Of a stretch of DNA of 37,925 nt, positions 1,560 to 37,925 are shown piece by piece (the stretch's first letter is position 1; each line of letters starts with the position of its first letter). The position numbers and the translations under genes were made by a program. Location of the stretch: NCBI GenBank assembly GCA_000442015.1, contig KE561025.1:1-37925 (forward strand), in the 5' to 3' direction. The notes beneath the pieces are model-generated. The model saw only the letters and a program-made list of their open reading frames with translations. It ran no database searches and had not been told where the DNA came from. This DNA comes from Rozella allomycis CSF55 (Eukaryota).

Positions 1560-1960
1560 GTTCAGGGGTAAGCAATATATAATTGCAATATCATTGGGAC
1601 CTTGCAATGAATAACTGGGATTGGGAAAGCCTTCCAATTAATAACTGGGATATTGGCAATATTGGATATTAATAAAAGCATTGGGTAATAGCAAAGATAA
1701 AGATCAACAATTTATTCATTTTCCAATGGTTCTGGCTCATCATATAATCGCAATAATGTTTTCATATTCCATAAACGAAGATTGTACTTAAGAAATATCA
1801 ATATGTCAAGGTTCTTAGGAAGCATGCGCTTTCTCAAGTCTGTTATTGTTAACTTGGCAGCACTGAACAGACGCTCGACATGATTGGATGTTGGAGATAA
1901 ATACTTTAAATTTTGATAATTAGATAGACGTTGTTCCAAGGTGATTTTGACGAATGGATT
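1560..1960 (-). mobile_element. hAT-family DNA transposon remnant (C-terminal dimerisation domain at 1712-1939 plus repetitive end)
   Basis: PTSNHVERLFSAAKLTITDLRKRMLPKNLDILIFLK matches the hAT dimerisation motif. Downstream are short repeats (aataactggga x2, several attggg) and a CAGGG at 1563 resembling a hAT terminus. Confidence 0.75.
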
Positions 1961-2507
1961 CCCCTTTCTTTAATAATCAAATTCGGTTGATATATTAAAA
2001 AAATCTAAAGATCTGTTCATTTTTCAAAATAGGAAATATGGGAAGAAATGTCAAATGCATCAATTCCTATTACTCCCAGTTATTATGGAAATTTTTTCAT
2101 GGAGTATGTTTAGCTGATAAAAGAGCTGCAAGTTTTAGTAATGTTTTTGCGATGTATAAAAAAGTCAAGTTAAAAAAACAGTGTATCATACGTCACAGTG
2201 ACAGGCCTTGCCGTCTTTTTCGTGTTTATTCTTGAAACGGGAGATTTCGTGAAACTTCGGGGAAACGATTTTGTATTATATACATGAAGCCTTCAAACGA
2301 AACTGAAAATTAGGTCATATCCTTGGTTTGCTCAGAAAATTTCATTAATCAATAAAAGAGTTGATATATTCTAAAAAAAACTTTTTGCCCAACGGCCATT
2401 TGTCAATTACGCGAAACGATATCATTTCAATTTCAATTAATGCCAAATTATCAATATCTTAACTCCAAATATATTGCTATCTAGATTCAGCGTTTATTAC
2501 GTGGAAA

Positions 2508-8301: not shown

Positions 8302-9080
8302 TTATTTCGCCTTCTTATTCCTTCTTCCTGGATATATTAGTTGACGATACTGAAATTTCTGTACAATTACTTGAATTCGATCAGGAGGATCGCAATAACT
8401 ATCGCAATGTTTCTATGTGAATGGCAAAATTATAAAATACCTTTAACGATAAGCATGACTTGCATGGGTAAAGCTTTGATGGATCTGTACAAGTTTCTCG
8501 GTTTTCGTCTATCAATCCCTGTTTGAACATGACTTTATGTCTGACACCATTTTCGGTATTTTTTTGAAACTCCACAAGTTTCTTATTACTAAGGCTTTTA
8601 GCTCTACGGATGATTTTCGTTTGTAAGATACAATGCTTGTATCCAGAATTTCGGATCGTATTTTTCAAAGTCTCTCTGTCAAATGTGAGTGAATCGTATT
8701 TATGTTGTATAATCTAATATTAGTAAAAATGATAGTCATACCTTGCTTTTAATTATGGACTGCAGCATGATAAGAGAATGTGTTAATGTATTTAGTTTGT
8801 GCGAGACTAGTCTCATACGAATAATTGACTGGATTGCAATAACCAGATTTCTGCGCTCTCGCCATTTTGTTTGTATGAAAGATATGAGAAAGCAAAATCG
8901 CTTGTATTTCTTAGAAAAGTGTTCAATCCAAACCGACGGAGTAGTTGACGGGGACGGAGATACATGCCTATGTTGAAGACAATTGACATTGGGTAAATAA
9001 ACTTGGTATAGCTTATCTTTGTGTAAAGAAAACGTTGAAGTGGTAGAATCTATAATTGGAGAAAGTTCTAGACGTAACAT
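8302..9080 (-). CDS. IQ-motif-containing basic protein (3 exons)
   Basis: IQ-like motifs IAIQSIIRMRL and MLQSIIKSK. Two 28-nt GT-AG introns join ORFs 8736-9080 and 8399-8668 and a last exon ending TAA at 8302. Confidence 0.6.
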
Positions 9081-9157
9081 CTGATGTTAGAAAATTCGGG
9101 AAGGATATTTATTTTTGGAAACCAAATCCACTTTAAATATTAAACAAGGAAATAGTT

Positions 9158-11394
9158 TTATTTATACATAGCTTCTTCTAACGTGAGAAATCCTTCGCCT
9201 TTGCACATATTACTCATGGATTCATCTGAACGATCTAACAATCTTCTTAATTCTTCTTCACTTAACACTTGGCGAATATCTCTGTCGCCCTTTTGAATCA
9301 CCAATTTTTCGTTATCTTCAGCAGCCAATATCTGCGCCAATTCACCTAAAGAAGTTTGTTTTGGTCGAAATAGATGATCTCCTTTGAATCTCCCAGATTC
9401 TATCACAACCTTTTCCAACTTTCTTTTTGAACTTGCTGTTTCAATTATGTGGTGCTCAATTGATCTTGCAATGGCAAACCGAAATACTAGTACAGGTTTA
9501 GTTTGACCTATTCTATGCGCTCTATCTTGGGCCTGTAAATCCATTTGAGGATTCCAATCCGAATCGAAAATAATGACTGTATCTGCGCTTGTTAAATTAA
9601 TCCCTAACCCACCTGACCTTGTACTTAATAAGAAAATGCGTTTTGAAGAATCCGGATTATTAAACTCATTTATCTATTTTTTGATTATTTAAAGATTACC
9701 TCAGATTGCCTTTCCTTTTGACTAATTGTGCCATCAATCCTACAAAAATCGAAATTTCGCAAGTTGCAAAATTCTTCCAACAAGTCTAGCATTTTTGTCA
9801 TTTGGGAGAAAATTAGGACTTTATGGCCTTCTTGTTTAAATAACTCTTTCAGAATTTGGTCTAATAGAAGCATTTTCCCAGATGACATCACCAATCGTTC
9901 ATCAATGACTACTTCACCGTTTTCATCTTCAGGAATATCAAACAAATAAGGATGATCACATATTTTACGCAATTGAACGATTCTGTTTTGAAGCTTTAAG
10001 TTTTTAACTTCTAAAAGTGACGATAAAGGATTTCTTTTACTCTTGTCTAAAATCGGTTCATTTTCTTTGGATTCATCATCAGAAATAATTAAATGTTGCT
10101 GATTTTGGAAATATTCAAAATGAAGAAAACATATTTTTTTTACCTACATGAGACATTCTTCCTCTCTTTCGCCTCTTGTTTGGCTTGGCCTCTGAATCAT
10201 TGTCTCCAAAGTAGAGTTCTATGTCTAAAATATCATTTTCTGGTTTATCTCTTTCAGATTGAATCAATTCTCTCAAATCTTTATTCAAAATTGCATCATA
10301 ATATTCCTTTTGCTTCATTGTCATTGGGGCCAAAACTAAATATTCTTTCTTCTTTGGCATTTCTACCTCAACTTTAAAAATTTCTAAAATTTTGAATTTA
10401 CCATCAGATTTTAGGCGCCTCAGAAGAAATGGCTTTAAAACGGAATGAAGTTTGGAAACAATTGAATTTTCTTCCTCTTGAGAAATAATTTCTTCGTTTT
10501 CTTTATTTTCAAAATCAAACCTATAAAATACCAAAAGATAGAAATACCAAGACTGAAAAGATTGCAAATCATTGAAAACATCAGGCAACAAAAAGTTTAA
10601 CAAACTCCAAAGTTCTGACAAGTTATTTTGAAGTGGGGTTCCAGTAATTAACAAACGGTTATCAGAGTTTAGAGACTTCAATTCTCGAAACAATTTACAT
10701 TTATAATTCTTTAATCTGTGCCCTTCATCCACCACGAGATATTTCCAGACAGTTTTTTGCAAATATTTTCTATCATTCATTGCTATATCATATGACGTTA
10801 TAACCACTGGACAAGCCTTTTTCTTTTTCTCAAATCGTTTTCTTAGTTGGTTTCTTTCTCCTATATCTCCATGATAAACACATGTTGGAATAGTTGGTGC
10901 AAATCTGATTTAAACATATTGATTTTCTTACTTTTTAAATTCAGCTTCCCAATTGGCTATTGTTGATAATGGTGCAACTATTAAAAACGGACTTTAAAAT
11001 ATAACGATTAGTTTTTACCCTTTGACACCCTTTTCCCATAGGTATGCAATTAAAGAAATTGTTTGAATAGTTTTCCCAAGTCCCTTTAAACTTGATAAGA
11101 GTATTTTACCATCTCATCCGCAAGAATTCCATTTAATGCATTTTCCCACAATGAAATTAACCATTGCACACCCTTTATTTGATAATCTCTCAAAGTTCCT
11201 GCGAAAATACTGGGCTGTGAAAATTCTTCTCTTTCTTTAGAATCACTGCCGTCGGTATTCTATGCATATATGAAAAAAGATATGATAACCTTTTCTAAAA
11301 TGTCAGCTAAGAATTTAGAATATATCGAAGAACGTTCAATAACTACATTTAATGTCTCAAGCTTGCTCTTTTCATTTTCGCCGTCGACTGACAT
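9158..11394 (-). CDS. HELLS: SNF2-family chromatin remodeller HELLS/LSH/DDM1/IRC5 (9 exons)
   Basis: N-terminal [59 protein letters not shown] and [17 protein letters not shown] motifs. Confidence 0.92.
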
Positions 11395-11555
11395 TAAAAA
11401 CAAGAGGCTTGGTTTTCAGTGTTTCTAAATATATTATCCTGTGCGATGTTTATAATTCAATTTATGTAATTTCGTTTATATGTCGCTCAATTGATTCTAG
11501 AGTTTAGTACAATCTACAGCGCCACCTTCTGACCTTGATAACTGTCAAAATATAT

Positions 11556-12263
11556 ATGAGTTCTACTACAGCACCACCGCCTGTCAATCGACGCAATAAA
11601 CCCAATATAAATGTCATCAAAGCGAATAAAAATTATAAGCCAATAAATGCCGGAGAGTTAGAGATTTATGAAGGAGATATTCTTTGTGTAATAGATAACA
11701 GCAGTAATCAGCAATACTGGACATGTAAATGCGGTTCAAATATTGGTCTTGTTCCTGTATCTTATAGTAAAATGACTTGTTTTTGAAAATTAAAGTGCAC
11801 GAAGAGGCAGAAATGATTGAAAATCCTATGCATGAAGCCGCAAAGAGATGCAATTTTGAATTGGTAGAGGACTATATCAATATTGGCTTGTCTGTAAATG
11901 CATTAGACAAAAGTGGGTGTACCCCACTTCATTGGGCGTGTAGGTCCGGTTACAAAGATATCGTACAACTTTTGTTGTCTAATGGCTGTTTGCCAAACAC
12001 ACAAGTAAAAATTATAATACCATGTTAAGTTGAATAAAATGGGTGATACTCCTCTCCACTTGGCATCATATGGCGGTCATTCTGAAATTGCAAAGATCCT
12101 ATTACAATGTACCGACATTAATACAGAAACTCTAAACAATGAAGGAAAAACAGCTTTAGAGCTCGCGAAAAATGATTCTGTCGGGGCCATTATTCAAAAG
12201 CATGTAATGTCATTTAACCGTGAAGATTTAAATGAAAATGAGGAGCAATCAGACTTTGATTAA
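11556..12263 (+). CDS. OSTF1: Osteoclast-stimulating factor 1 homologue (Pro-rich, SH3, ankyrin repeats, acidic tail)
   Basis: PPP N-terminus, SH3 (EL...EGDIL..W..GLVP.SY), ENPMHEAAKR, VNALDKSGCTPLHWAC, NKMGDTPLH and a C-terminal EEQSD. Two introns. Confidence 0.88.
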
Positions 12264-12269
12264 ATAAAT

Positions 12270-13005
12270 TTATTTGCGTTTCCAGATTCCCAATTTCTCT
12301 TTGCCTTTTCTTTTCTCAAAGCTTTCGCAGTCTGTAAGACTTATCAAGACAAAATTCTCTTCAAGTAGTTGCTTGTAACTATAAAATAAATTCCCTTTAG
12401 TTTTACATTTCAATTGATAACGAGAATGGCGGACCACCTTCGTGATCAGACAAGGGATACATCAGCGTTACAAGTAACCCACTGGGTTTAATTAAAGAAC
12501 CCATTCTGGAAGCCCATTGATTTCTAAAACTCGGATCTAACGCACATAGAAATGTGTAATCAAAAACTACGTCAGCAGGATTTGGCAAGGAAAGTTCAAA
12601 AAAGTCGGCGGCAATAAATTCCAGTTCATTATTCGAAATAGCCAACGAATTTTGCCTCTAATTAGTATCGTTATATAATATTTCTACTTTTCTATTTTCC
12701 TCTATTATTGGTTCGTACAAATCAATGCCATAAATTTTTCGCTTCCCGTTTACCAGTTCAAAGCAATCCAAGGCCAATGAAATAAATAATTAATTATTAC
12801 TTGACCGCATCCTGGAACAACAAAAGTACCACTCTCGGGAAGGACATTTTGCTTTAAAAGGTCTATCAATGCAGGTGCCGCACTTGACATGTTCCATGGT
12901 GTTATTTGATTATCCCACATTACCTTCCAGGCTGAATAAAGTCAATGACGTATCATTACCTTCTTTAGGGCCATGTTTATCATGAATTTCTTTAATGCTA
13001 CTCAT
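12270..13005 (-). CDS. TPMT-family thiol/halide methyltransferase (HOL1-like; 5 exons)
   Basis: W...W...TPW, VVPGCG, ADFF, FDYTFLCAL.P..R..WA and GGPPF motifs. Confidence 0.9.
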
Positions 13006-13158
13006 TGATCAATACCTTGAAATTCAGAAATTGTCCAAAAGTAGTCCAAATAATAAAATGTGGAAAATTTGTAAAAGAATGATTAATTATCCATTTATTT
13101 AACTGAAATAGTGTGAGATTCCTGTCATGTTCCATTTTGTTGTTTGTGGCTGGGTGCA

Positions 13159-15070
13159 ATGGAAGAGGTTACTGAAAACGTTTATCCAATAGCTGTATTA
13201 ATAGACGAGCTTAAGCATGAAGATGTTGCAATTAGGCTTAACGCTATTCATAGACTGGGAACTATTGCACTAGCCTTGGGTGTTGAGAGAGCTAGGGACG
13301 AGTTGGTACCTTTTTTAGAAGGTAAATGATGTTCTTGTAAAATATAAGACTCAATGGATGACGAAGACGAAGTTTTGGTAGCTCTTGCAGAAGAAATAGG
13401 GAAATTAACTGACTACATTGGGGGCCCTACTTTTGCACATGTTTTGTTGTCACCATTGGAAATCCTTGCTGCAATTGAAGAACCTACAGTTAGAGATAAA
13501 GTATTTTTGTAACTTAAATATGAAAGGCTGTTGAATCTTTAAATGGAATTGTTAGTAGAATGCCCTCAAAGCAGATAGAAGATTTCTTTTTACCTTTAAT
13601 ACGACGATTGGCAGGTGGTGATTGGTTCACTACAAGAACAAGTGCTGCTGGTTTATTTGGTCATTGTTATGAGTTGGTATCTCCATCAATACAAGAAGAA
13701 ATGCGAAAACTATTTACTCAACTTTGCCAAGATGAAACACCGATGGTGCGTAGAGCAGCAGCAACTCACTTAACAGTATATTAATTTAAATTTTTGTGAT
13801 AGTCTTTGGTGAATAAATTGTCAAGAGATCATTTAATAAATGAATTTGTACCATTGGTGGCAATGATTGTACAAGACGATCAAGTAACTATTTTGTTTTT
13901 TTATTGAAAGGATTCTGTGAGACTACTTGCAATTGATGTGATAATTTCAATTTGCAACAATCTTACAATAGATCTGATCAAAAGCCACTTGCTTGTCTTG
14001 ATAAGAACTTTGATATCCGATAAAAGTTGGAGAGTTCGTTACATGTTTGCAGATAAATTTTCAAATCTATCAAAAGTGGTTGGAAAAGAATTGACTCATT
14101 CAGAATTGGCATCTCCATTTTCCATGTTATTAAAGGATTCAGAAGCGGAAGTGAGAACGGCTTCTTGTGGTCAACTCTCAAGTAGAATAATTTGTCCAAA
14201 TTTAAGCATAGGGCTTGGAGGGTTGATTGATGTGGAATACGTGAAAAAGTTGATTTTGCCCGTTGTGAAAGAATTAACGACTGATAACTCTCAGCATGTA
14301 AGAGCAGCGTTAGCTGACAACGTTGCTGGTTTAGCACCTCTTGTTGGAAAAGACTTGACAATAGAAATTTTATTGCCACTCTTTTTGCAATTATTGAAAG
14401 ATGAGTTTCCTGATGTGAGATTAAATATTATTTCAAAATTGGGTAGCGTCAATGAAAGTAATTTGGTCCTTTACGTGTTATAGTTATTGGAGTCAATTCC
14501 CTCTCTCATTCACTTTTCCCTGCCATCGTTCAACTCTCTGAAGATAAAAATTGGAGAGTTAGACTTGCGATTATTGAACATATCCCTTTACTTGCGTCTC
14601 AACTTGGAATGCAATTCTTCAATGAGAAATTATGTGGCTTATGCCTCGGATGGCTTGGTGATTCAGTTTTTGCAATCAGAGAAGCAGCCATCAAAAATCT
14701 AAAAGGCCTCGTAGATATTTTTGGAAATGATTGGGCCAAAACAAAAATTATTCCAAAAGTTTTAGACACTTTAAGTCAAGCTAGTTTCCTCTACCGAATG
14801 ACTGCAATACATGCAATCGTTAGCCTTTCTTCTGTTATGAGCCAAGAATCTGTTAATGAATATCTTTTGCCTGCTTTAGCTCAACTTCAAGCAGATCCAA
14901 TTCCAAATATCCGGTTCAATGTGGCAAAAGCTTTTGGCTCTCTGGCACCTCTATTCAAAGATCAAGAAGCCATCATTTCGCAAAAGATTAAACCATGCCT
15001 TCAAAAATTATCAGAAGATTTGGATAATGACGTTCGTTTCTATGCCAGGGAAGCTTTGACTATCTGTTAA
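13159..15070 (+). CDS. TPD3: Protein phosphatase 2A scaffold subunit A (HEAT repeats)
   Basis: [40 protein letters not shown] and [12 protein letters not shown] motifs. Six introns of 26-30 nt. Confidence 0.97.
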
Positions 15071-15097
15071 ATAAAATGTTTGAAAATGAATGTTTAT

Positions 15098-15730
15098 TTA
15101 GTATCCATATTGAGAAAGTTCTGATTGAACGTTTGAAATTTCTGCTTGCTTGTTGACAGCAGCCTTCTTCTTCAAAGCAAGAAGAGCCTTCTTGCGTTCG
15201 TAGAATGCCTTGGATTTTGTCTTTCTCTTTTCTTCCAAAGTCTTGACAACTTCTTGGTATTTCCATCCATATTCTTGTGAGAGTCTAGAGAGAACACAGA
15301 ATTTGCGACCAGGCTTCAAACGGAGAACACGGAGAGCATCTGGGACAACAACTCTCTTGACTTTATCATATGGGGATGGAACTCCTTCAAATACTTTCAT
15401 ACGTTCCAAAGCAGCTGCTCCACGAGCAGTCTTGTGTGGAATCATACCGCGAACAACTCTCCAGAATATTCTGCTTGGTGCGCGGAAGTGAAATGGACCA
15501 CGGGATGGATTTACAACGCAACGTTTTCTAACAAATTCTGCATACTTTAATTTGTTGCGGAAAAAGGATCCAGAAATGTTGATTTCTTCACAACGAACAA
15601 CAACAACTTTTTGACCTTTCAAAAGTTGTTTGGCAACAATAGATGCAAGACGTCCAAGCAAATGGCCTTTGCCGTCAATAATAACAGTCTCGTTAAATTA
15701 CTACACTCTATTTACCTTTTCAAAAGTCAT
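15098..15730 (-). CDS. RPL16: 60S ribosomal protein uL13 (L16/L13a)
   Basis: Spliced [21 protein letters not shown] and [12 protein letters not shown]. One 27-nt intron ending GAG. Confidence 0.98.
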
Positions 15731-15820
15731 TCCTTTTTGCAGGGGTTTTTCGAAAAAATAAAAATTTTCCAAAGAAAATTCAGAAATTTCATTTACACTT
15801 TAATGGAGTAGAACTAATGT

Positions 15821-18652
15821 TTATTGATCATATTTTGCTAAAAGTTTAAGAAGAGGGCGAATAGAAAGCCACCATTGGTCCTTTGGTCTGCGCATTTTTG
15901 CATCAGCCTCTTTTACCAAACTTTGCACTGGTGTGTAAACCACATGACCTTGTTGAATGCCCAAAACAACTGCACTATCTGAAGTAATATCTTTTCCAAG
16001 CCAATTTTCAATAAACTGCATAGAGAGTACAGCGAATCTGGTTCCTCTTATTCTGTCCATGGGACTTGGGATTCTACCTTGTTGCAAGTGACCAAGTACT
16101 GCTGTCTTGGAATCAAATAATGGAGTGCCTTCTTCTTGGAAAATGTTAGACAGGACTTCTGTTGTGTATGTATCGCTCACACTCTCATTGCGAAGAACAA
16201 TGCGACCGATTCTTTTGTCTTCATGAAAATGCTTTTTCAAATGATCCACATCGTTTGATATATCGTTCAATGTTATTCCTTCTTCATGGATGTAAGTTCT
16301 AACTGCACCTGAAGCCAAACCACCAAGAGTTGCCAAGTATCCGCATCTTCCTCCTTGAACTTCAACGACGAAAACTCTGTTTCTGGAAGCAGAAGCTGAA
16401 CACTTTATTGTATCACATGCCTCAACAATGGCATTTAATGCGGTGTCTGAACCAATAGAATATTCAGTACCTTTGAAGTTAGTAATAAAAATATAAAATA
16501 CCAGGAACATTATTAGATACAGTTGCAGGAATACAAACCATTGGAATGCAAAATGCAGGATAATTTGGCCTGTTTTCTTCAAGCTTCGCCAAAGACGTAT
16601 ACGCCTCAAACCCTCCGACAATAATCAAGCCTTGGATTCCAAATTTTTGCATTTGATAAGCGACCATTCCCAAGTTTTTGACTGGCAGTGTTCTGTTTAC
16701 ACCAAGCTCCGAACCTGCCTTCATTGTCCATCCGTCAACATCCATCCATTTCATTTCTTTGAAGTCTCCATTGATTAATCCATCAAATCCATTGTAGACA
16801 GCGTAAACAATATAGCCTTTATGAAGTCCGTACCGAACAGCTGCTCTTGTTGCTGCGTTCATGCCAGCGCAGGGAGCACCACAGTTTAATATCGCTATTT
16901 TCACCTAATGTTACAAATCAATATATCATTTACTGAAGTTTTTGATTCTTCTAAAACTTTCTTGTTTAAAACCAGAGACTCTGATATTTCATAAGCTGCA
17001 CGAAAGTCAGGATCACGGAGTTCAAACGCTCTTTTGAAGTCCTTGGCTTCGACTGCCTTTGCTACTGCAAGAGTCTATAAACCCATTAAAATCTTTTTAC
17101 CATTTGTACAGCTTCCATCAATGGAACACATGTTATTTTGTTTTCATTATAGGCAATCAATGGTGACGGCTTGTTTTCAGAAGATGACAACACTTCTTCA
17201 ACGGCTTTAGATCCTTGAAGGGTGGCCTATTATAGTGAAGTTGACTTTTTTTTACCAAAATCCTGTCAAAAGCTGTGGGGAATCCACCCCTTTGTACATG
17301 TCCTAATGTTGTGACTCTTGTATCATAGTTTAGTTTCTTTGAAAGAACGTCTTTTATTTTTTCACACTTAATTGGCTGGTTGTTTCTATCTAACGCTCCT
17401 TCTGACACAACAATAATGACTTTTCTTTTTCCAAGTTGACGATGCTTAATTAACCAAAACAATTTAATAATACCTTCTTAAGAACATCACACATATCTTC
17501 TTCCCACGTTTCTGCTGGAGGCGCTTCTGGTATAAACAACCAATCAGCGCCAGTAGCTAGTGAGGCCATTAATGCTAACCAACCACAATGTCTACCCATA
17601 ACTTCAATTATAAAAGCTCTTTGATGTGAGCTTGCTGTAGAAGATATTGAATCTATAGCTTCCACTATTCTATGAAGGGATGTATTGGCGCCAATGGTCA
17701 TTTCTGTTCCTACCATGTCATTGTCAATCGATCCAACCATTCCAACAATTGACAAGTGCTGGTGCCTTTTTGCCAAATCTGCGGTTATTTTTCCCGAGTC
17801 CACAAGTTCTTGCAACAATCCATTCCATTCACTTCTAAATATATCGGCACCTGTTAATGATCCGTCTCCCCCGTTAACAATCAAGCTATCAATTCCTAAA
17901 GACACTAAATTATAACACGCTTTTAATCTTCCTGATCTTTCCCTGAATTCTTTGCACCTAGCTGTTCCTATTGCAGTCCCACCCTTAACCTAAATGTTTT
18001 ACAATAGAATTACTGTCGACAAAATTCCAGCAACATCATTCCATTCCATTTTCTTAATTAATTCATTACCAGTAACCAATCCTTATTTGGATTATATTTT
18101 TTTGATACCTTGATAGCCTTCATAGACTGCATACGCATCGCACCCTTTAGCGATTGCTACACGCACAATAGCCCTTATAGAGGCATTCATTCCACATGAA
18201 TCTCCTCCAGACATTAAAAAAGCTACCTTGCGTTTAAAATCCGATTTTGCCTGCTGCTTAGAAGATGGACTTTCATTTTTGGTCTCCACCTTGTCAATAA
18301 GAGCCTTCTCGCTGAAAAGACTTTCTTTATTTGTTAATACTAATTTGGTTCCAATAGGATCATTAAAACTATAAATTTGCTGTCCGTTTTCTGCTGTTGA
18401 GTTGAATGAAACATTCATGCATTTTAACTTTTCTTCGATATTGGTTGCAGCAAAAACTAAGGTATCGTTTAGTGTTTTGCCGGACGAGGATACAACCCGT
18501 ATTTCCAATGATAATGGAGATGAGCTGAACAATGAGAGCTTGTAAATTGATTTTCCCTTTTCGACCAAACTGAAACCAAAGTCACTATAGAATTTAAGCA
18601 ACTTATCAACTTCATGAGCTTGGCAATCCAATTGAATATGGCTGAAGTTCAT
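15821..18652 (-). CDS. PFK: ATP-dependent 6-phosphofructokinase with fungal-type N-terminal glyoxalase-like domain (8 exons)
   Basis: [42 protein letters not shown] and the second half [10 protein letters not shown] ... LGHLQQG. About 140-aa N-terminal extension. Confidence 0.97.
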
Positions 18653-18950
18653 TGGTTAAAGTGGTCGATATTTCGTAAACAAAAACAAAAGGTTTAATAA
18701 ATACGATTATTCAAATAACTGTATATATTTAAAATATAAAAAAAATGGTAAAGCCTTGTTGGATTTGTTTTTTTGGTACTTGTCTTAGAGATCTGTACAA
18801 GAACAGTGAATTTGGGTAGCTTAATTTTGATAATAATGAAATGATTAGTCCCCATTTAAAACTTAAAACGTGAAATAAGTCAAAATAAGTGAGAAAGAAT
18901 GTTCAATAGTTTTTGGAGAGATTTAAAAACAGGTAGCTTTAATAATTTAT

Positions 18951-19841
18951 TCAATGCGACATTAATTTATACTTTCCTTCATGTCCAGTTTTGGTTACTT
19001 TTTTGCATTTCAAAAGAATAAACATTATAGATCTGACCATAGTTTCATCTAAGTTGTAACAAGTGGTTCTATTTACCAATCCCTGAAAACACATCACCCG
19101 GCAAAAATTCAGTAGTAAGAGGGAAGTTCACGCCACAGAGAATTCCATTCAATGTCTAAATTTGTAACATAATTAAAAAATTACTGATAATGATATCAAA
19201 TCTTTCAAATAATCGTCAATATCATTATACATGCTATTCGAAACTTCGATTTGTGTATGCCTCTGATCAATATTTGTAGTTAATTCTAAATCAAGATCTA
19301 GAGTCTTAGAGGAGACAGAGGTTAGGGTTTCACGTGATTTTAAAATAGCCAAAGAATGACTAGAAAGGCCTAGAGAATCAAGTCTCAAGGATCCCTCTGA
19401 GAAATCGGAACCATCGGAATCGAAACAAACAGAATTGTTTTGAACGGATTCTACAATCTCATCTTGAAAAGCTTTTTCATCATCATCTTGGATACATTTA
19501 TACTCATCAAATGGCTTATATCCATACGGTTTTAGATTGCTTTCAATTCCATCAAGGGTATCGTCGATATCCTTGCACTTTACGGACATGTTTTCATACA
19601 TTTCTTTAAATGTCTTTCTTCCAGTGCTTCCACTTAATATATCAATTTCAACCTTTTTTTCGTGTTCGTCAAGTAACTTTTCAAAAAGCCTCAAGCATGA
19701 TTGAGGTCGACTTAAGTTTTCCTCTTGCTCGACCAGAAATTGGCATTTTTCATTGAGCTTCTGTATTTTCTTTATATATTCAAAATAAGCTTCATCAAAT
19801 TCAGCTTCTAGATTGTCAATGAAACTCAAACCACCAAGCAT
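18951..19841 (-). CDS. SKA3: Ska3-like kinetochore protein (3 exons)
   Basis: N-terminal coiled coil ending LKPYGYKP, central LRLDSLGLS motif, and a C-terminal winged-helix-like domain reached through 29- and 28-nt introns. Recognised from memory of Ska3 motifs. Confidence 0.65.
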
Positions 19842-19877
19842 GCAAAGCCACAGTTCTCAGTGTGAGCTTTCATAAAA

Positions 19878-20898
19878 ATGTTTGGAAGTTCCAAATTTGA
19901 TCAAGAAGACTTTAACTTTCACAGATACCTTTTGGATTTGCCTTTATCCAAGGAACATGTATCTTTTAAAAATGCACCAGGAGGAAATAATGTAGGGTAC
20001 ATTGAAGGTTGGAGATCAATAAAATTGGCAAACGATATCTTTGGATTTAATGGCTGGTCCTCATCTATATTAGATTTAACTGTTGACTTTGTAATTGAAT
20101 TGATTCCGTCCAATTCTTAGATTGATGAAAAGGAGGGAAAATTCTCTGTTGGAGTATCTTGCCTTGTGCGCATATTTCTAAAGGATGGATCTTTTCATGA
20201 TGTAATATCGGAAACTTTAAACTAATTAGGATATTGGATACGGAAATGCTGAAAATATGAGATCCAAAGGTTTGGCCATCGAAAAGGCCAAGAAAGAAGC
20301 ATGCACAGACGCTGTAAAGAGATGCCTGAGAAATTTCGGTCAATCATTAGGAAATTGTTTGTATGATAAATCCTACGCTAGCATGATAAAAAGACCACAA
20401 AATAATAAGGGGTCAACGGAAGAGATGTTTACATCAGCTGATAATGCCAAAATAAAACGACCAAAGATAAATGAAAATATTAAAATTGACGCGAATGAAA
20501 AACCAAGGCTTGTTGATATTCCGACTATAGAAAACTCACATTTAAGGAAACTGTCGAAGCCATTAGAAAATACTACTCCTCTAGAATCAAAAAAGCAAGA
20601 TGCTAGATTTGCTTCAAGTGTAATTGGGTCAACAGAGAATCCTGTCCCAATCAGACTTGAAAACAAACCAATTCCGACCTATGAGAGCAAAAGAAGCATA
20701 ATAACTAATGGTTCGCCTAACGCGGAAAAAATGAGATATCCTCCAATAACTAATGATTCGCCTAACGCGGAAAAAATGAGATATCCTCCACCTGCATTAA
20801 AGTCAAATGCTTACGCTTCCTTGGAAAGTGTCAATGAATTTCATGTAAGCACATACAAATCATTTCCTGTTAATCCTACAACTCCTAGAAGGCCTTGA
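19878..20898 (+). CDS. RAD52: DNA repair protein Rad52 (3 exons)
   Basis: YIEGW...LANDIFGFNGWSSSI, LKDGSFH.DIGYG and EKAKKEACTDAVKRCLRNFG..LGNCLYDK motifs. Introns at 20091-20120 and 20202-20229. Confidence 0.95.
20701..20790 (+). repeat. 45-bp tandem duplication in the RAD52 tail (ITNxSPNAEKMRYPP x2)
   Basis: 20701-20745 and 20746-20790 differ at one base. Confidence 0.95.
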
Positions 20899-21013
20899 CG
20901 ATAATTACATCATATAATTAAAGTTTAGAGAGGCTCCACAATAAATAAATAAAGAATGTTATCAATTAATTTTTATTTTGCAATAAATACGTCGGAGATT
21001 TTGTTGATTGGGA

Positions 21014-21502
21014 ATGCTGTTGCATACTTTAACCTATTTAATCTCAATAATCGGAGTAGCTTTTTCAAAGGTCTATTTAACTATTGAAGCCTCAAATTAT
21101 GAGCCCTCGTCCACTGTTGAAATACCTGGGAACATAAAGACAACTTTTGTCCTTGACCAAGGAGCGTGCAGAAAGTCGAATTCTAAATTTGATGTTTCAC
21201 TTACATGGAATTATCCACCAAAGAATGGTGAATTGCATTTCTATGAAAACCAAGAAAAGAAGAAACGAGGTGAACCTTTTGCAATTGTCAAAGCACTTGA
21301 AACTACGTATATGCTTCCTCCTATTTGCGAATTAAAGAATGAAGAGCATAATGAATATGTTGTTAAAGTAAAGAAACCTGCGAATAGCATATTCCTTGGA
21401 GCTCAGTCTGTAATTGACTTTAAGTTTGAAGAAACGGAAACCAAAAAGAAGGTAATTTATTTCAAAGAAGGTAGTGCGTCTGGGTATAGGGGAAATAAAT
21501 AA
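21014..21502 (+). CDS. Hypothetical secreted protein, about 162 aa
   Basis: Signal-peptide-like MLLHTLTYLISIIGVAFS, intronless, beta-rich, with two Cys. Confidence 0.7.
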   Translation: MLLHTLTYLISIIGVAFSKVYLTIEASNYEPSSTVEIPGNIKTTFVLDQGACRKSNSKFDVSLTWNYPPKNGELHFYENQEKKKRGEPFAIVKALETTYMLPPICELKNEEHNEYVVKVKKPANSIFLGAQSVIDFKFEETETKKKVIYFKEGSASGYRGNK

Positions 21503-21522
21503 AAATGATTAATTGAATTTTC

Positions 21523-23619
21523 ATGAATTTCTTTGCACAACTTGCCAGCCAATTTACATCGCCATCAAAGACTATACAGCCGACTAATACCACTGTAGTA
21601 TTAAGCAAATTTCATAGAATATGGGATTTTATTTATAAATCGCTGTCGGTTGAATTAAGAAACAAAAACAATGTGATTCTTCACCACACCGATATACCTG
21701 CAAATTTTAGGGCTATTGTGGATATTTTGGTAGAGGAAGAAGCTAGAACAGATGTAGGGTCGACAGGGATTTGTATGGAATACCTTTTGAAGAATAATAT
21801 TCTGCAGCAACTTTTTGACATGTCTGAAAGAGATGTTCCAGAAGGAGTTTTAGGAGAAACAGTTAGATTGTTTACATCATTGATTGAAAATCTAAATGAT
21901 AAATTTTTGGTTCATTTGAATATTCATAGACCTACATTGCAATTGTTAAGCAAATGTGTTGAAGATCAAAAAATATCAATGAGATATGAAGATGAACTTG
22001 TAGAGCTTGTATTTTCAATATGTAATCGAATTCATTCATTTCCAGAACTTTTAACAATATTTTATAACGATTTGGATAGGAGAAGTAAATCGCAATCTAT
22101 TGAAAATTTAAATTCTAATAATTCAATGTATGGCGAGAATGAGTTTTTGCTTTTTTCATATTTGATGAGATTTATTTCTTCCGATGGTAAAAATGGTGAT
22201 TATGCACGAACGGGGATTCTTTTAATTTTGTCATTAAAAGTTTCTTCTGTGCAGAAATTTGTGATTAATTGCAGCGATTTATGTTCTCAAGTTAGTTTTC
22301 ATTTGCATGGACTTTTTGCTCAGCTCCCTAAAACAATTGACTATGAAATTGATTTATCAATGGAAGGATCAAGATTGAATTTAAATGATGAAGAAAGTTT
22401 CACGCAATTAGAAAAATCTGACAAAAATCTTTTGCTTTCTTTTTTAAATTTGTTGGATTTTGCTCAAAATATTTTAATTAAATCAAAATCATCTTTAATT
22501 TCTGAATTGTTGTGCGAATCAATTTCAGAAAACTTTTTAGAGAAAAATATGACGCCTTCATTTTTGCATTCCTCAGATTCAGATGGAACTTATTTATTAA
22601 TGGTTTATTATTCATTTCATATTGTTAAATTTGTTCATGAGGATAGTTTGTCTGAATTGTTCATCAACTATTTTCTTAAACGCGGGCCAGATTATTCTTC
22701 AAAAGGATGGTCAAAAATTGAATCTACTGATCTAAAAACTGTTGGGCTTCAACCTTTCTTCATCTCTAAACTGCAGAGTTCTACTGATATTGCAATTATT
22801 ACTCTCAAATTCTTATCTACCATGATCAAACTTCATTCTCCCTACGCACTCCCATTATTAATAAATGGATTAGTCGAGAACAAGGATGTTGTCAACGGTA
22901 CACCATTTTTATACCCAAGGTCATTCCATTTTTCTGTTTGTAAAGCCCTTGCAAACTTGCTAAATCCTGAAACTTTAGAAATGGGATATGATTCTCATGT
23001 CAGTGAAGCAAATTCTTCTATCGCTTTTCATTTGCAAAGAATAGCCCAAAAAGAAATTTCAGACACAAACACGCTGCCAAGCCAGGGTATATCATTCCTT
23101 CATCATCATCTTTCTTTCAGCAGAGAACTATCAAAAGAAGATTTAAAGTCTAGGTATGACATGTTAAAAAGAAGTAGTTGCACTCTCAATTCCTCGCCCT
23201 TTATAAATTCTATCCTCGATCAATTCAGCAAATTTTGGATGAAAAGCTCACAATTTAATACAGCACTAATTGATTTAATCGTAGAGCTTATATCTTGCCC
23301 TGAACCTTTGGTGTACATCGCTCTAATTGCTGGTTTTGAACAACATCAAAAATGCTTAATCCAGATTTTAAATACTTTGTTCAAAAGTCAATTGCCTCCT
23401 TTAGTAAATGGAGATAAAATATATGCTAAAAGTATTCAGGATTTATCTGCCGCCATCAAAGAACTCTACATAACAGGTATATTTCCAAGCGAAGAGGAGT
23501 TGTCAAAATACTCGCCATTGGCCAGAAATGTTATATTACTAGAAGAATTTGTTAAAAGACTTTTTGCTACTTTTGAAGCTCACGGCTTAGGATTCTACTG
23601 CTTGCCCTTTTACGACTAG
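21523..23619 (+). CDS. FHIP/FAM160 (RAI16-like, FTS-Hook-interacting) protein
   Basis: IVDILVEEE...GICMEYLLKNNIL, LCxRI...PELL.IF, FLLFSYL, GDYARTGIL and C-terminal NVILLEEFVK.L.A motifs. Confidence 0.85.
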   Translation: MNFFAQLASQFTSPSKTIQPTNTTVVLSKFHRIWDFIYKSLSVELRNKNNVILHHTDIPANFRAIVDILVEEEARTDVGSTGICMEYLLKNNILQQLFDMSERDVPEGVLGETVRLFTSLIENLNDKFLVHLNIHRPTLQLLSKCVEDQKISMRYEDELVELVFSICNRIHSFPELLTIFYNDLDRRSKSQSIENLNSNNSMYGENEFLLFSYLMRFISSDGKNGDYARTGILLILSLKVSSVQKFVINCSDLCSQVSFHLHGLFAQLPKTIDYEIDLSMEGSRLNLNDEESFTQLEKSDKNLLLSFLNLLDFAQNILIKSKSSLISELLCESISENFLEKNMTPSFLHSSDSDGTYLLMVYYSFHIVKFVHEDSLSELFINYFLKRGPDYSSKGWSKIESTDLKTVGLQPFFISKLQSSTDIAIITLKFLSTMIKLHSPYALPLLINGLVENKDVVNGTPFLYPRSFHFSVCKALANLLNPETLEMGYDSHVSEANSSIAFHLQRIAQKEISDTNTLPSQGISFLHHHLSFSRELSKEDLKSRYDMLKRSSCTLNSSPFINSILDQFSKFWMKSSQFNTALIDLIVELISCPEPLVYIALIAGFEQHQKCLIQILNTLFKSQLPPLVNGDKIYAKSIQDLSAAIKELYITGIFPSEEELSKYSPLARNVILLEEFVKRLFATFEAHGLGFYCLPFYD

Positions 23620-23647
23620 TATAAATTGCATTAGAATATTTTATTAA

Positions 23648-24041
23648 TCAATTTGCTTCTTCAATCTTCTTTATCAATTTTTTATTCTTCGATCTCATTA
23701 ATTTTTTTAATTTATTGGGGTTTTTAATCTATCCAACTAGCAAAAATATATTACCACTTGATACACTGCGGACTTTTGAGCATTCGCTAATCGCCTTTCT
23801 TCACGCTCTTTCTTCTCTTGTAATATCCTTTGTTTTTCTTCTTCTTTTTCTTGCTTCTTAAGAGCTTCCAATGCCTTCATCTGTTTTAATCTCTGCTTTT
23901 CCTCCATTCTTTTTTCATACGCCGACAAGCCAGCACCAACTTTTTTATTATTACGCACAATTCTTTCAGTTCTATATTTTATTTATCAACTATTTACATC
24001 GGGGTTAAATCTTTCCACTTTCTTATTTTTCTGCTCGGCAT
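23648..24041 (-). CDS. CGR1: Cgr1/CCDC86-family rRNA-processing coiled-coil protein (3 exons)
   Basis: MPS..RKWK start, YEKRME..K..K.LE and RRLANAQKSAVYQVIKNPNKLKKL. Two 26-nt introns. Confidence 0.85.
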
Positions 24042-24065
24042 TTTCAAAATTTATGTTCAGCCACC

Positions 24066-24503
24066 ATGGAAAACGAACATTCTCATTTTCAAACTATAAC
24101 CCAGCATTTTCATGAAAATAATATACCTTCACTAGCTTCATATTATTGCTCAGTGTTCAGATCCAGAAACCCAGAAACAGATCTGACTGATATTTGTCAG
24201 TCGTGCTCATCTGTATTTGTCCCAAACCAAAACTGTAAATTCACAATAGAAAGAAAAATAAGAAAAAATGCCATGGTAGTCCTGAAAGAAAGAAAAGTGA
24301 AGAATTGGTGTACATATCTTTGCAACATTTGCAATAAAGCAACTCAAACACCTGCCTGGTATCCTCAAAGGCAGAAAAAGGAAGCAACAAAGAATGAAAA
24401 AGTCAAAAAGAAAAAGAAAAAGAAAAGCATTTTTGATACCGTTGAACAAAAACAGAAAGCAACTTCTCATTTGTCGCTACAGGATTTTTTGACTTCACTA
24501 TAG
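24066..24503 (+). CDS. Rpr2/Rpp21/Snm1-like zinc-binding RNase P/MRP subunit
   Basis: CQSC..VFVP..NC and CNIC pairs, Lys-rich tail and terminal LQDFLTSL. Confidence 0.75.
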   Translation: MENEHSHFQTITQHFHENNIPSLASYYCSVFRSRNPETDLTDICQSCSSVFVPNQNCKFTIERKIRKNAMVVLKERKVKNWCTYLCNICNKATQTPAWYPQRQKKEATKNEKVKKKKKKKSIFDTVEQKQKATSHLSLQDFLTSL

Positions 24504-24544
24504 ACGAGGCATGTATATTAAGAACAAATTATAAAAAGTTTATG

Positions 24545-25720
24545 TTAAACCATTTTCTTTAGTTTTCTTTGGGTCTGGGATATTTTCAAGCCAGTTTTAT
24601 CCACGCCAATTTCCAAATTAGACAGCATTTTGTTTTGAATATCTTTTATCAAACAATTAAATTACTTACCTAATTCTTGGCCAATGCTTGATCCGATTTC
24701 CTTTTGTTTTTGAACGATACTGAGCAATTGGTCCAGGTTTTCATCTTGTTTAACCATCATTTGTCTTTGTAATTGAACTAGCCCGCTGTCATCGTAATTT
24801 TTTGTTTCATTGGTTTCCTGCGCAACTCCAAATACTCTTCTCGGACTTGCACTAGTGGCTGAAAAGGCAACTTTTGACTGGATTCCATCAAATGTCGGTG
24901 GAATAGGTTTGGTATGAAGTACAATTTTTCCAAGCTTTTCTATTTCATAATTTAACTCGTGAAGTTTGTCTTGTCTTCTAGATAGTTCATCTTTTGTTCT
25001 AGTAAAGGTTTCTTCGTAATGTTACATGTTTGCATCGGTAGAGTCAAGACTTTTCTTCAATTGATCAACTTTCACTGTTACTTCAGTGAATAGTGATTTG
25101 GCCTGAGATGTTAATGCGTACGCTTCAGACACATTTTCTCCAATTTTATCTCTCTCTGGAATATTAAAATCGACAATGGGTTACTAAAAAGAAGTTGTCG
25201 GATATCCACTATACTTCTCTCTAATTTTCTGAATTCAGTGATCCAGTTTCCATGAGAAATCGAAGAGTTTAGTTCTATCTTGACAATTAATAAGATTCAT
25301 TACGAATACCCTATGATCTGGAATGTTGAAGAATTCTTTCACAATTCTATTAAACCAAAAATCTTCGTGAAAAGGCCCGTAGGTTTTTAAAAGGCCATCA
25401 CAATATGCTTCTAATTTGACCCTTCGCTCCATCAATGTTTGAGTTGATGGCTTCAACAAAGTTTTTCGTGGAAGCTCTCTAGGTATATGATACCCCATCT
25501 CTTTTATCTGTGAAATTTGAAGATAATGTGTACTTGAGAATCAAACGTAACAAAATCACTGAATCGACGTAATACCACCCAGTTTCGCAAGCTTGAGGAA
25601 ATGTTGATTTCAAATGCCTAAAAATCACTTAATTATTGTACTTACAGTGTATGTTTTCTCATTTTCATGAATCTCTTGATATTTGGGTATGATTATCGAC
25701 TCCACTATCGGTTGCCGCAT
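24545..25720 (-). CDS. VAM7: Vam7-like PX-domain Qc-SNARE (7 exons)
   Basis: PX domain (VLRRFSDF, LPRK, MERRVKLEAY), RRVFG..QET and a SNARE motif (QDENLDQL...QKEIG..IGQEL..QN). No transmembrane segment. Confidence 0.9.
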
Positions 25721-25746
25721 TTCTTAAATTTTCGAATATCTCGATA

Positions 25747-25890
25747 ATGGATCGAGTAGTCGAAGAGAAACTAGCAGAACAAGAAAAACTAAAACAACAG
25801 ATTTTGAGAATGCAAACAAAGTATCAAAAAATGCGAACAGCTTTCGGAAAAGAAATGCGAGACAAAGTCAATGTAAATAAGGAAACATAA
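25747..25890 (+). CDS. Small coiled-coil protein, about 47 aa (may splice to an alternative 3' end)
   Basis: MDRVVEEKLAEQEKLKQQILRMQTKYQKMRTAFGKEMRDKVN.. fills the gap between VAM7 (divergent) and ARO8 (convergent). Confidence 0.5.
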   Translation: MDRVVEEKLAEQEKLKQQILRMQTKYQKMRTAFGKEMRDKVNVNKET

Positions 25891-25950
25891 CCAAAGCTAC
25901 CCTGTCTTCATCAAAATTGCAGACTAATTAACTAACAAAATTATTTATTT

Positions 25951-27427
25951 CTATGTTTTGTTGGAACTTTTAATAATTTTGCCAAGTCTCAACAAAGCTG
26001 TATCGATCTCTTCTTCCGTCGCTGTAGAAAAGGCCGCCCTTAGGAAGGGTGATTTATCGCCATGTGGCATAAATTCCTATCACTTGAGTATTAGTTTTTT
26101 ACACGACCGGGTATGAATATTACCTTTTCTTGAATAGCCTTTTCTTTGACCAAGCTCTCACTGTCGACTATTCCTAGAATTTTCATCCATATGAACATCC
26201 CTTTATGTGTTTAAAAGTTGCTTGTACCACATTTCGGTTCATTGAAACTGACTAGATTACCTAAATGCCTCCTTGATGCCTCCAGAAAGAGGTTCTTTTT
26301 GGATTCATAATATTGACTCGTTTGTTTGCAATGATCAAGAAAACCATTATGACCCCAAGTTTTAAGTAGTTTCAGCAAAATTGATTGAGATATTCCGCAA
26401 GGATGAATATTAGAGCACTATAGACAATTTTTATCTTCCTTGGTTACTTCTTCATGTAATATTATTCTGTCTATCAATGCTTTTGGCCCCGACGCAAACC
26501 CAATTCTTGCCCCGGCAGACAAAATTTTGCTGAAAGAGTCAAAACGCAGTACCCGACCTGATTGATCAAGTGAGAAATAGCTTGGTATAAGATTGTTGTA
26601 GTTATACTATTAATACAACGCCATGAATAATACTTGTAGGTAATAGTAGGGATCATCTTCTATAATCAAAAAATCATACTCCTCTGCAAGTTTTAGCACT
26701 TCCAGCCTCTGTTGTAAATTTGTGGAGCAACCAGTTGGATTTCCGCCATTGGGTACTGTATAGAGTATCTTGGGCCTTCTTTGACTCGCATCCCAATTTG
26801 ATAGTTTCTCTTTAAGTGCATTAGGACAAATACCGTTCTTGTTTGTGTGAATTTCTATATTCACATAAACTTTATTCCTTTACCAACCATTCTACAACCT
26901 ATTGGTCTCAAGACAGCGAGAGTGCCGCTATAGGTCGGAGTTTCTAACAATACCGAGTCTTCGGAGGTCAAAAACATTTCAAAAGCCTATTAAAAGTGAT
27001 TTTACATATTGCCTTTGAAACTCCATCTTGACTTCCATTTGTCACACACATAGACCAATCATCTGATTTAGGCCGATGAAGTTGATTTTGAAGTTCACGG
27101 AGCCATTCTAAAAGCTCCATGTATCCCGCCAGAAAGGAATCAAAAGAATATTTTTACCGTGTTGGAATATTGTAATGCTCTCTTTGTTTCTGTTCTGTCT
27201 AGCTTTATGGTTTCCCCACTCTTTAAACTGAAAGATATCGAATCAATTGGGAACTTATTAGGATCCGGACTCCCTCCTCCCAGAGAAATCTGCGGAAAGA
27301 ACTCTTAATCGCTTACCATGCCTGGAATAAGGAGTAATGGTTGCAGTGCACGTATTGCGGATGGTTGCCTAAGTTTGGCAACGGAGTTTAAATATTTTGA
27401 ATAGTCGATCTTTCTTGAGATCATCAT
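25951..27427 (-). CDS. Class I PLP aminotransferase, ARO8/AADAT (aromatic/2-aminoadipate/kynurenine) type (9 exons)
   Basis: RQPSAIRAL, ISLGGG.P, ALQYS, NGSQDG, YTVPNGGNPTG, IEDDPYY, RFDSFSKILSAG.RIG and GMFIW motifs. Confidence 0.95.
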
Positions 27428-27579
27428 TTTGTTTTGGTTTTAATGAACTGTTTTAGATTTTTAGCCAATTTTGTAATATAATTACAGTTTATTATATAAT
27501 GAGCAATAAATGAATACATTTAACTGAAACATTGTAGGTTTAATTGGTTATTATGACTTAATATGAACTTGATCTTGAT

Positions 27580-28323
27580 ATGTGTTACTCTATTCGACTT
27601 TTATTCAACCTTTGCCTTTTTCCTAAGCCTTTCAGGTTCGAGTATTTCTTTTTCCTTGCATTCCTCAAGCAAAATATGAAAAGCTTTGGTATTCGTACTT
27701 ACTTGAGAAATGTGGTTTTCAGAATTATCTATCTTTAAAGCCACGATGTTACACTATATTTTATCATAAAATATCATTCTTACTTTTGTTATAAAATCTC
27801 TGGTGAAGCTTTTCGTGTTTCTGGTTGGCCACATGGCGATATTTCGGAATTTCAGTGCGCTTTGCAAGAGACTCAAACATTAAAAAAGAAAGTCTTTGTA
27901 GTTTGTAGTGTCAGAACTGAGAATTATATTCACCATTTAATTATGCTCATTGATGTTTTACAAGATTTACAATGTTATGAACTGGGTAACGATGCTGGAT
28001 ATTTACAATGCATTTGATATTTAGAGATAACAGATACTTTTTGAATTTCTTCTATCGGTTACAAACTTGTAGATAAGGTAGATGACAATAAGTTCCAGTT
28101 CAGTCAACTTACACTGAGGAAAGGAACGATAAACATTAAATTCTGTAATGAAACTTGAGTTTCCTGGAGTGCCTTTGAAACTTTGGATCTCGTGTTTTTA
28201 ATTATCAGCCATTCGGAAGGAGGCGAATGGAGAAACCCGCCAGACAAGCTAATTTTAGCTTAGCTAAATCGCACATGTCATTTTTATAATGAAATTCCAG
28301 TGTCACGTTATTTATTAATTTAA
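27580..28323 (+). pseudogene. Probable decayed coding sequence of unknown family
   Basis: Frame +1 reads as protein-like for about 245 codons with only five internal stops (27736, 28015, 28042, 28156, 28261). A minus-strand spliced model could not be completed. Confidence 0.35.
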
Positions 28324-28457
28324 ACCTCAAAATAGTTTATACTTTGGCTTATTGGGAATTACCTCCATAAATTGAATAACTGAAAAAAGGGAATATACGG
28401 TATGATGTAAGATATTTAATATGCGTTTGTTATTCAGATTGCTTTGGTTTATTTATG

Positions 28458-37500: not shown

Positions 37501-37925
37501 AACAAAAACGAATCTGAAATTTATTCTCTTCTCTCTTTGGCCAAAACTGAAATTAAAGATTTCCTAAATCTATCAAAATTAATCTCTCAAATCATTCCTC
37601 TAAACGATTCTCTCAATTTTAAAAATGAAATTTCAAATTGTTTAAATTTATTCATTTCTTTAATCCAAAATTTAAATTCTAAAAACAAATTCAATATAGC
37701 TAAAGAATTGGTCTCTTCAATAAATCAAATCATTTCATTCGCTTCTCTAATTTCAGATCATCAAAACCCTCAACTAATAGCCGAACAAGAATTACTAGCA
37801 GCCGCTGCTTCAATTGAACTCGCTGCAAAGAAACTGGCAAGTCTAGCGCCAAAAATTAACATTCCAATCGAAGAAATTCAATCTCTAGAATTCGATCAGC
37901 AAATATTCCATGCCGCCAATTCCAT
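31594..37925 (+). CDS. TLN: Talin (F0-F3 FERM head, divergent rod, start of I/LWEQ domain); runs off the window
   Basis: KHRPMRVKMLD..LKTVLIDES, LKRKFFFSDQNIDRNDPIQLNLLFVQ, LRTYGVTFF.VKEK, KRWAA...FTLDFGDY, ISQLIGGYIDMI, ILDLETLLVFA and IAEQELLAAAASIELAAKKL...FDQQI. Six introns of 26-29 nt. Confidence 0.95.

Follow-up and report, generated by a model that had tools for sequence, protein, structure and literature searches.

Results

A methyltransferase gene with a putative GT-TG intron

Rozella allomycis is an early-diverging fungal parasite and represents a key lineage next to Microsporidia. We analysed a stretch of 37,925 nucleotides (nt) from strain CSF55 (contig KE561025.1 of assembly GCA_000442015.1, positions 1 to 37,925), referred to as the window. 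Its minus strand carries the gene for a TPMT-family (thiol/halide) S-adenosylmethionine (SAM)-dependent methyltransferase. The second intron of this gene, a 26 nt insert at 12800–12775, starts with GT and appears to end with TG. Few signals of eukaryotic genes are as constant as the AG with which introns end. According to our model, the coding sequence starts with the ATG at 13005 and is split by four short inserts, which gives the following features:

12270..13005, minus strand: TPMT-family (thiol/halide) SAM-dependent methyltransferase gene, five exons, 207 codons plus stop (our model)
12932..12959, minus strand: intron 1, 28 nt, GT-AG
12801..12931, minus strand: exon 2, ending with ...VVPGCGQ, the first half of motif I
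12775..12800, minus strand: intron 2, the insert under study, 26 nt, putative GT-TG, following the codon for Gln in the motif I sequence G-C-G-Q
12742..12743, minus strand: alternative acceptor, the first AG past the donor, giving a 59 nt in-frame intron
12688..12774, minus strand: exon 3, 29 codons, beginning with ALDCFELVNGK, missing from the public model P0001
12658..12687, minus strand: intron 3, 30 nt, GT-AG
12379..12406, minus strand: intron 4, 28 nt, GT-AG

The Pfam family PF05724 (TPMT) matches exon 4 with an E-value of 1.7e-18 (67.5 bits) and exon 2 with an E-value of 7e-6 (26.3 bits), the cut-off being 26 bits. The database protein nearest to the largest exon is P0001, annotated as ‘S-adenosyl-L-methionine-dependent methyltransferase [Rozella allomycis CSF55]’. 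This public model has 178 residues; ...GCGQ is fused straight to RQNSL..., and 12774–12688 is skipped. P0001 is mis-spliced, with the 29-residue exon 3 left out. It is short by these 29 residues because only an AG acceptor was allowed in that model.

On the minus strand, the sequence ...GGA TGC GGT CAA is followed by the insert and then by GCC TTG GAT TGC. The insert starts with GTAATA and ends with CATTG, the next exon base being G. An earlier note, made from the sequence alone, had described 26 nt without any AG, and the minus-strand reading bears this out, the AG count being zero. As that note also held, the unspliced frame reaches a TAA (12752–12750, after 16 further codons of the open reading frame 12750..12941), and splicing to the first in-frame AG, which ends at 12742, would give an intron of 59 nt and remove 11 residues (ALDCFELVNGK). 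All GT-AG connectors between the two frames (59, 77 or 80 nt) share this one AG at 12742–12743. The remaining ambiguity of the insert bounds is that sliding the cut by one base (TA...GG) yields an identical mRNA. We prefer the GT...TG bounds because all introns of our comparison set (62 of 62 hand-curated GT-AG introns, from 17 genes of this window) begin with GT.

The insert has a GC content of 0.12, and the following 33 nt, up to the next AG, have an exon-like GC content of 0.48. The change from intron-like to exon-like composition falls exactly on the TG. An AT-rich stretch of 26 nt without AG is not rare by chance in itself.

Homology test of the cut

Alternative mRNAs were built from the coordinates and scored against a hidden Markov model (HMM) of seven homologues (chytrids, an Epichloe protein and unnamed environmental proteins). 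The check suggested beforehand, alignment of the spliced protein to homologues, turned out in favour of the TG cut: the resulting protein of 207 residues is collinear with them and scores 294.9 bits. Cuts shifted by 3 or 6 nt reach 286.3–289.2 bits, which is 5.7–8.6 lower, and the 59 nt GT-AG model reaches 264.7 bits, 30.2 below the TG cut. The exon-skipping public model P0001 has the lowest of these scores (243.1 bits).

All seven homologues read through motif I as G-C-G-x-(G/C/S)-x-(D/E). The alignment to them is gapless at the junction, so that the TG cut restores the spacing of motif I as had been claimed. The predicted methyltransferase is collinear with its relatives only when it is cut at TG.

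Exon 3 is 48–52% identical to the three nearest homologues, compared with 51–54% for the remaining protein. The 11 residues lost under the AG cut are 45–64% identical to these three. The divergence of the Rozella methyltransferase from the homologues is not above that among the homologues themselves. From these comparisons, exon 3 looks constrained.

At its 3' end the methyltransferase gene faces a neighbour. An SH3-ankyrin gene (plus strand, stop at 12261–12263) converges on it (minus strand, stop at 12272–12270). About six bases lie between the two stops, and the 3' untranslated regions must therefore overlap.

Further TG candidates in the window

We scanned the window for short inserts which start with GT and connect open frames, whatever their terminal dinucleotide. 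The scan gave 140 non-AG candidates, 12 of them ending with TG; its read-through filter missed the methyltransferase insert. Only two TG candidates survived inspection:

27130..27157, minus strand: putative GT-TG intron in a kynurenine/alpha-aminoadipate aminotransferase gene, 28 nt, ending with CTG and followed by exon base G
10116..10143, minus strand: possible third GT-TG intron, in an SNF2-family helicase gene, 28 nt, competing with a 49 nt GT-AG intron at 10099–10147

In the aminotransferase gene, the boundary can be compared with a solved human enzyme (PDB 2qlr_A). Residues 1–42 of exon 2, which encodes 44 residues, correspond to residues 34–75 of this structure, and residue 1 of exon 3 corresponds to residue 78, so that no residue is missing and none is extra at the junction. 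Scored against an HMM of 16 homologues, the TG cut (28 nt) reaches 558.6 bits, and cuts shifted by 3 or 6 nt reach 547.7–552.8 bits. The sole GT-AG alternative, an intron of 43 nt, loses the residues AGYME and scores 542.0 bits, 16.6 below the TG cut. All 16 homologues are free of gaps across the 27157–27130 junction. On this evidence, the predicted GT-TG intron of the aminotransferase gene is as well supported as that of the methyltransferase gene.

The public model of the aminotransferase gene, P0009 (gene at 25951–27427, minus strand), scores 491.4 bits against the same HMM. It is mis-spliced and differs from our homology-guided model at six places: FFPQ is added, AGYME, VSK and VIFIPGR are missing, and two C-terminal replacements introduce IC for SS and FDEDRVALVMFPYLH for KT.

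The same gene contains a 26 nt GC-AG intron at 26987–27012 (minus strand). The model with this intron scores 558.6 bits, compared with 545.2 bits for a GT-AG alternative which loses VSK.

Homology cannot choose between the 28 nt and the 49 nt introns of the SNF2 gene because the linker around the junction is not conserved. In length, the TG reading has the advantage, 28 nt being within the range of the curated introns and 49 nt being 13.5 standard deviations (SD) above their mean.

Two other introns of the SNF2 gene, at 10521–10547 (27 nt) and 10372–10401 (30 nt) on the minus strand, were recognised only from their donor and acceptor signals and from the spacing of SNF2 motifs. They are hidden in one long open reading frame because their lengths are multiples of three and they contain no stop codon.

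Several other candidates were rejected. The insert at 21484–21515 is intergenic, and that at 29799–29826 belongs to the adaptin coding sequence. The GT-CG candidate at 32482–32507 and the GT-TG candidate at 32654–32704 both conflict with the FERM/IRS reading frame. In the adaptin gene, a GT-AG intron of 26 nt took the place of one of 44 nt. A dynamic programme for gene finding based on codon usage was too weak on short genes and proposed false non-AG introns.

Comparison with ordinary introns of the window

Several introns of the comparison set were fixed by homology, including those in the aminotransferase, PP2A, PFK, adaptin and talin-like genes. All 62 curated GT-AG introns, which come from scans limited to 20–36 nt, are 24–31 nt long (mean 27.58, SD 1.58). 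The two TG introns, with 26 and 28 nt, have ordinary lengths; the mean is exceeded by 19.9 SD in the 59 nt alternative with AG and by 9.7 SD in the 43 nt one. The donor is GT in all 62 cases, GTAA in 42 and GTAATA, as in the 26 nt insert, in three. The GC content of the TG introns is 0.12 (methyltransferase) and 0.25 (aminotransferase), compared with a curated mean of 0.256 (range 0.13–0.44). From the TG to the AG that follows, it is 0.48 and 0.60, respectively, the TPMT coding sequence having 0.388.

The pyrimidine fraction was measured over the 12 nt ahead of the terminal dinucleotide, and the curated mean is 0.556. The value is 0.75 for the methyltransferase TG (reached by 6 of the 62 introns), 0.83 for the aminotransferase TG (reached by one) and 0.92 for the SNF2 candidate (also reached by one). 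Ahead of the AG alternatives it is 0.25 for the 59 nt intron, the lowest of all, and 0.33 for the 43 nt intron, both at the bottom of the range. At position −3 there is a T in the methyltransferase and a C in the aminotransferase intron; position +1 is G in both.

Within the curated introns, TG accounts for 79 of 1376 dinucleotides (0.057), and two independent TG ends would thus have a chance of about 0.003 (0.057 squared). A homology-fixed boundary on TG in two genes is beyond chance. According to our gene models, 2 or 3 of the 66 introns of the window end with TG.

The insert contains TTAAT, the A of which is 15 nt from the 3' end. The branch-point pattern YTRAY occurs in only 23 of the 62 introns (one of the 62 was entered one base off), at scattered distances and with none conserved. 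RNA folding around the three TG sites was no better than that of shuffled sequence (z-scores of −0.69, 0.24 and 0.87).

In the minimum-energy fold of the methyltransferase site, 12795–12806 pairs with 12771–12777 (minus strand), the six exon bases ahead of the donor being joined to the three bases on either side of the acceptor boundary. Such pairing would bring donor and acceptor close to each other; the complete fold (z-score −0.69) is no stabler than shuffled sequence.

A search for RNA runs that contain 12240–13140 gave none. An RNA run carrying the same species label was compared, as contigs, with positions 9000–28999. It gave 10 short pieces with unrelated flanks which cover neither TG intron, and it weighs neither way.

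Other features of the window

A talin-like gene at 31667–37923 (plus strand) encodes FERM and IRS-type PTB domains, and the DNA for them is unusually rich in GC (0.46 at 32–33 kb). After these domains comes a low-complexity open frame, longer than 1400 codons, with a GC content of 0.22–0.32 and a strong GC skew. The last 322 residues gave no Pfam match. An isolated open frame at 1715–1969 (minus strand) is probably a transposon relic; it weakly matches PF05699, the C-terminal dimerisation domain of hAT transposases, its 19.3 bits falling short of the cut-off of 21.4.

Discussion

Probable use of TG as acceptor

The TG at 12776–12775 is probably a productive, non-canonical 3' splice site of the methyltransferase intron. 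Splicing at TG, as read in the earlier note, is the interpretation best supported by the homologues, by the length and composition of the intron and by the context of its splice signals. The insert at 12800–12775 would then be an ordinary ultrashort major-type spliceosomal intron with UG in place of AG, and exon ligation at UG would give a productive mRNA for a TPMT-family methyltransferase.

The contacts of the 3' splice site offer a possible explanation. For the post-catalytic P complex of yeast, the passages cited here report that the last G of the intron pairs with its first G and the A at −2 with the branch adenosine, and that Prp8 contacts a pyrimidine at −3 (bioRxiv 10.1101/212811). A UG site would retain the G at −1 and the pyrimidine at −3, i.e. 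two of the three contacts, and would lose only that between A(−2) and the branch adenosine. With introns held to 24–31 nt, geometry would bring the UG, not the AG 33 nt further, into the active site, and the unusually strong pyrimidine tract may offset the weakness of the UG site. Distance and pyrimidine tract may determine the 3' site in these length-constrained introns of Rozella, position −2 being checked less strictly.

As a tentative generalisation, R. allomycis might possess a naturally relaxed second-step spliceosome, in which UG (perhaps G after any base but A) serves as sole constitutive 3' site in a few percent of the 24–31 nt introns. The site would be set by the distance from the branch point and by the poly-pyrimidine tract, and the species would be the wild-type counterpart of prp18-delta yeast.

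Several points weigh against the use of TG, which we infer only from the sequence-based evidence named above. The comparison set is self-made and based on gene models without RNA verification, and its lengths come from the scans limited to 20–36 nt. An unused TG lies within 15 nt before the AG in 40 of 61 curated GT-AG introns, and TG must therefore be a much weaker acceptor than AG. In yeast, the second step is strongly impaired by U at −2, as stated in the passages cited from bioRxiv 10.1101/212811. In both firm cases the next AG, 33 and 15 nt downstream, is in frame. This is required in both genes if AG is the real acceptor, and would otherwise have a chance of about 1 in 9. As far as the cited passages of PMC2374985 go, human TG is never the sole 3' site, the TG-AG pairs being at most 28 nt apart, and human AG-to-TG mutations activated neighbouring AGs and not the TG. 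The partner AG of the methyltransferase TG, at 33 nt, is over this human limit, and that of the aminotransferase TG, at 15 nt, is within it.

A further point against it concerns motif I. Exon 3 starts with Ala where, as the earlier note had cautioned, Gly is usual. A metagenome scan with the family alignment gave 80 loci, the best of them 44% identical and no close Rozella relative among them; of the 70 that show the motif, 69 have Gly at this position and one has Ala. In the seven close homologues, the position of the third Gly is G in five, C in one and S in one. Such a weakening of motif I would be compatible with gene decay as well.

Alternative explanations

Such decay could have begun with a dead acceptor. 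A recent A-to-T change would have killed the AG, and the transcript would now be spliced at 59 nt, skip exon 3 or retain the intron, leaving a crippled methyltransferase on its way to a pseudogene. The human AG-to-TG mutants behave in this manner according to the cited parts of PMC2374985, the next AG is in frame and keeps the open reading frame intact, the conserved Gly beside the junction is replaced by Ala, and Rozella is a reduced parasite. We nevertheless consider this explanation unlikely. The same TG lesion would be needed in two intact, conserved genes within 38 kb, and the methyltransferase shows no other defect, its exon 3 being conserved like the remainder. The 59 nt and 43 nt products lose conserved segments at a cost of 30.2 and 16.6 bits, and introns of these lengths would exceed the mean of the 62 by 19.9 and 9.7 SD and have the poorest acceptor context. 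A random lesion would also leave the above-average pyrimidine tracts of both TG introns unexplained.

Both sites could also be in use as a TG-AG tandem, with the downstream in-frame AG needed for early recognition and the TG isoform being one of two. This is the sole arrangement in which human TG sites were seen, judging from the passages cited, and it would suit the in-frame AGs 33 nt (methyltransferase) and 15 nt (aminotransferase) downstream as well as the pyrimidine at −3 and the purine at +1, which human TG sites share. It seems rather improbable to us: the distance of 33 nt exceeds the 28 nt limit given in the human data cited, and the acceptor context of the AG is the worst of all compared. 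In the class I methyltransferase fold a helix presumably follows motif I; the AG isoform would lose this helix and is unlikely to be functional.

A sequence or assembly error, with AG at the intron end in the true genome and the T a miscall, is highly improbable, for although the T at 12776 rests on the one assembly, the base is outside any homopolymer run and the same A-to-T miscall would be needed at −2 of two introns among about 65 in the window.

Other routes were considered for the insert. A U12-type (minor) intron has the donor (A/G)TATCCTT, and as the donor at 12800–12775 reads GTAATAATT, this type was rejected. U12-type splicing, Ire1-type splicing and translational bypass were all dropped because the insert has a standard local donor, length and composition.

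Significance

If TG is the sole productive acceptor in about 3–5% of these tiny introns, Rozella would be a natural system for the study of 3' site choice under relaxed AG recognition. If its spliceosome is relaxed, public gene models that allow only AG would be wrong wherever such introns occur. The methyltransferase and the aminotransferase have wrong public models, and errors of this kind pass into phylogenomic and metabolic inferences for the Rozella lineage.

Comparison with known systems

Introns of R. allomycis have been reported to be about 30 nt long (PMC6349667), at 2.5 introns per kb (PMC8476143). With the ordinary GT-AG introns of Rozella, the putative TG intron shares the donor consensus, the length and the AT-richness. 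It differs in the terminal TG and in a pyrimidine tract which is stronger than most.

The predicted protein resembles the TPMT/HOL-type thiol/halide methyltransferases (PF05724) in its Pfam matches, in its collinearity with chytrid and other fungal homologues and in the conserved downstream motifs. Unlike these, it has Ala for the third Gly of motif I (P-G-C-G-x-G-x-D).

Full-text literature searches revealed no paper on TG acceptors in Rozella, and Rozella is not mentioned in the available passages of PMC7072748 and PMC10639083. TG acceptors as such are already known. In the parts of the literature cited here, the only TG ends on record are rare alternative sites in humans and erroneous products of a yeast fidelity mutant; an apparently sole productive TG acceptor in fungal introns of 26–28 nt is not described in the passages searched.

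The human sites belong to U2-type introns, e.g. that of GNAS (PMC2374985; Parada et al., 2014, PMC4176328), and have been verified in 36 genes according to the passages cited (Szafranski et al., 2007, PMC2374985). As described there, they resemble the Rozella sites in a GT donor of normal strength, a pyrimidine at −3, a purine at +1 and an AG not far downstream. They are unlike them in being only alternative and extremely rare, whereas the TG of Rozella seems to be the sole productive site, and this in an intron of 26 nt.

Yeast lacking Prp18 comes close in another respect. The cited passages of PMC10711555 report that prp18-delta strains use UUG, CUG, ACG and UGG sites, above all where a strong poly(U) tract precedes them and the normal AG follows. 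They also report that reads of such junctions were mis-mapped by STAR but not by BBMap. These ‘BG’ sites resemble those of Rozella in the UUG or CUG sequence, in the G kept at −1, in the strong upstream poly(U) and in the position upstream of a normal AG. The difference, as far as these passages show, is that the yeast is a mutant giving aberrant products at low level, whereas Rozella would use TG as a wild-type route to functional mRNA.
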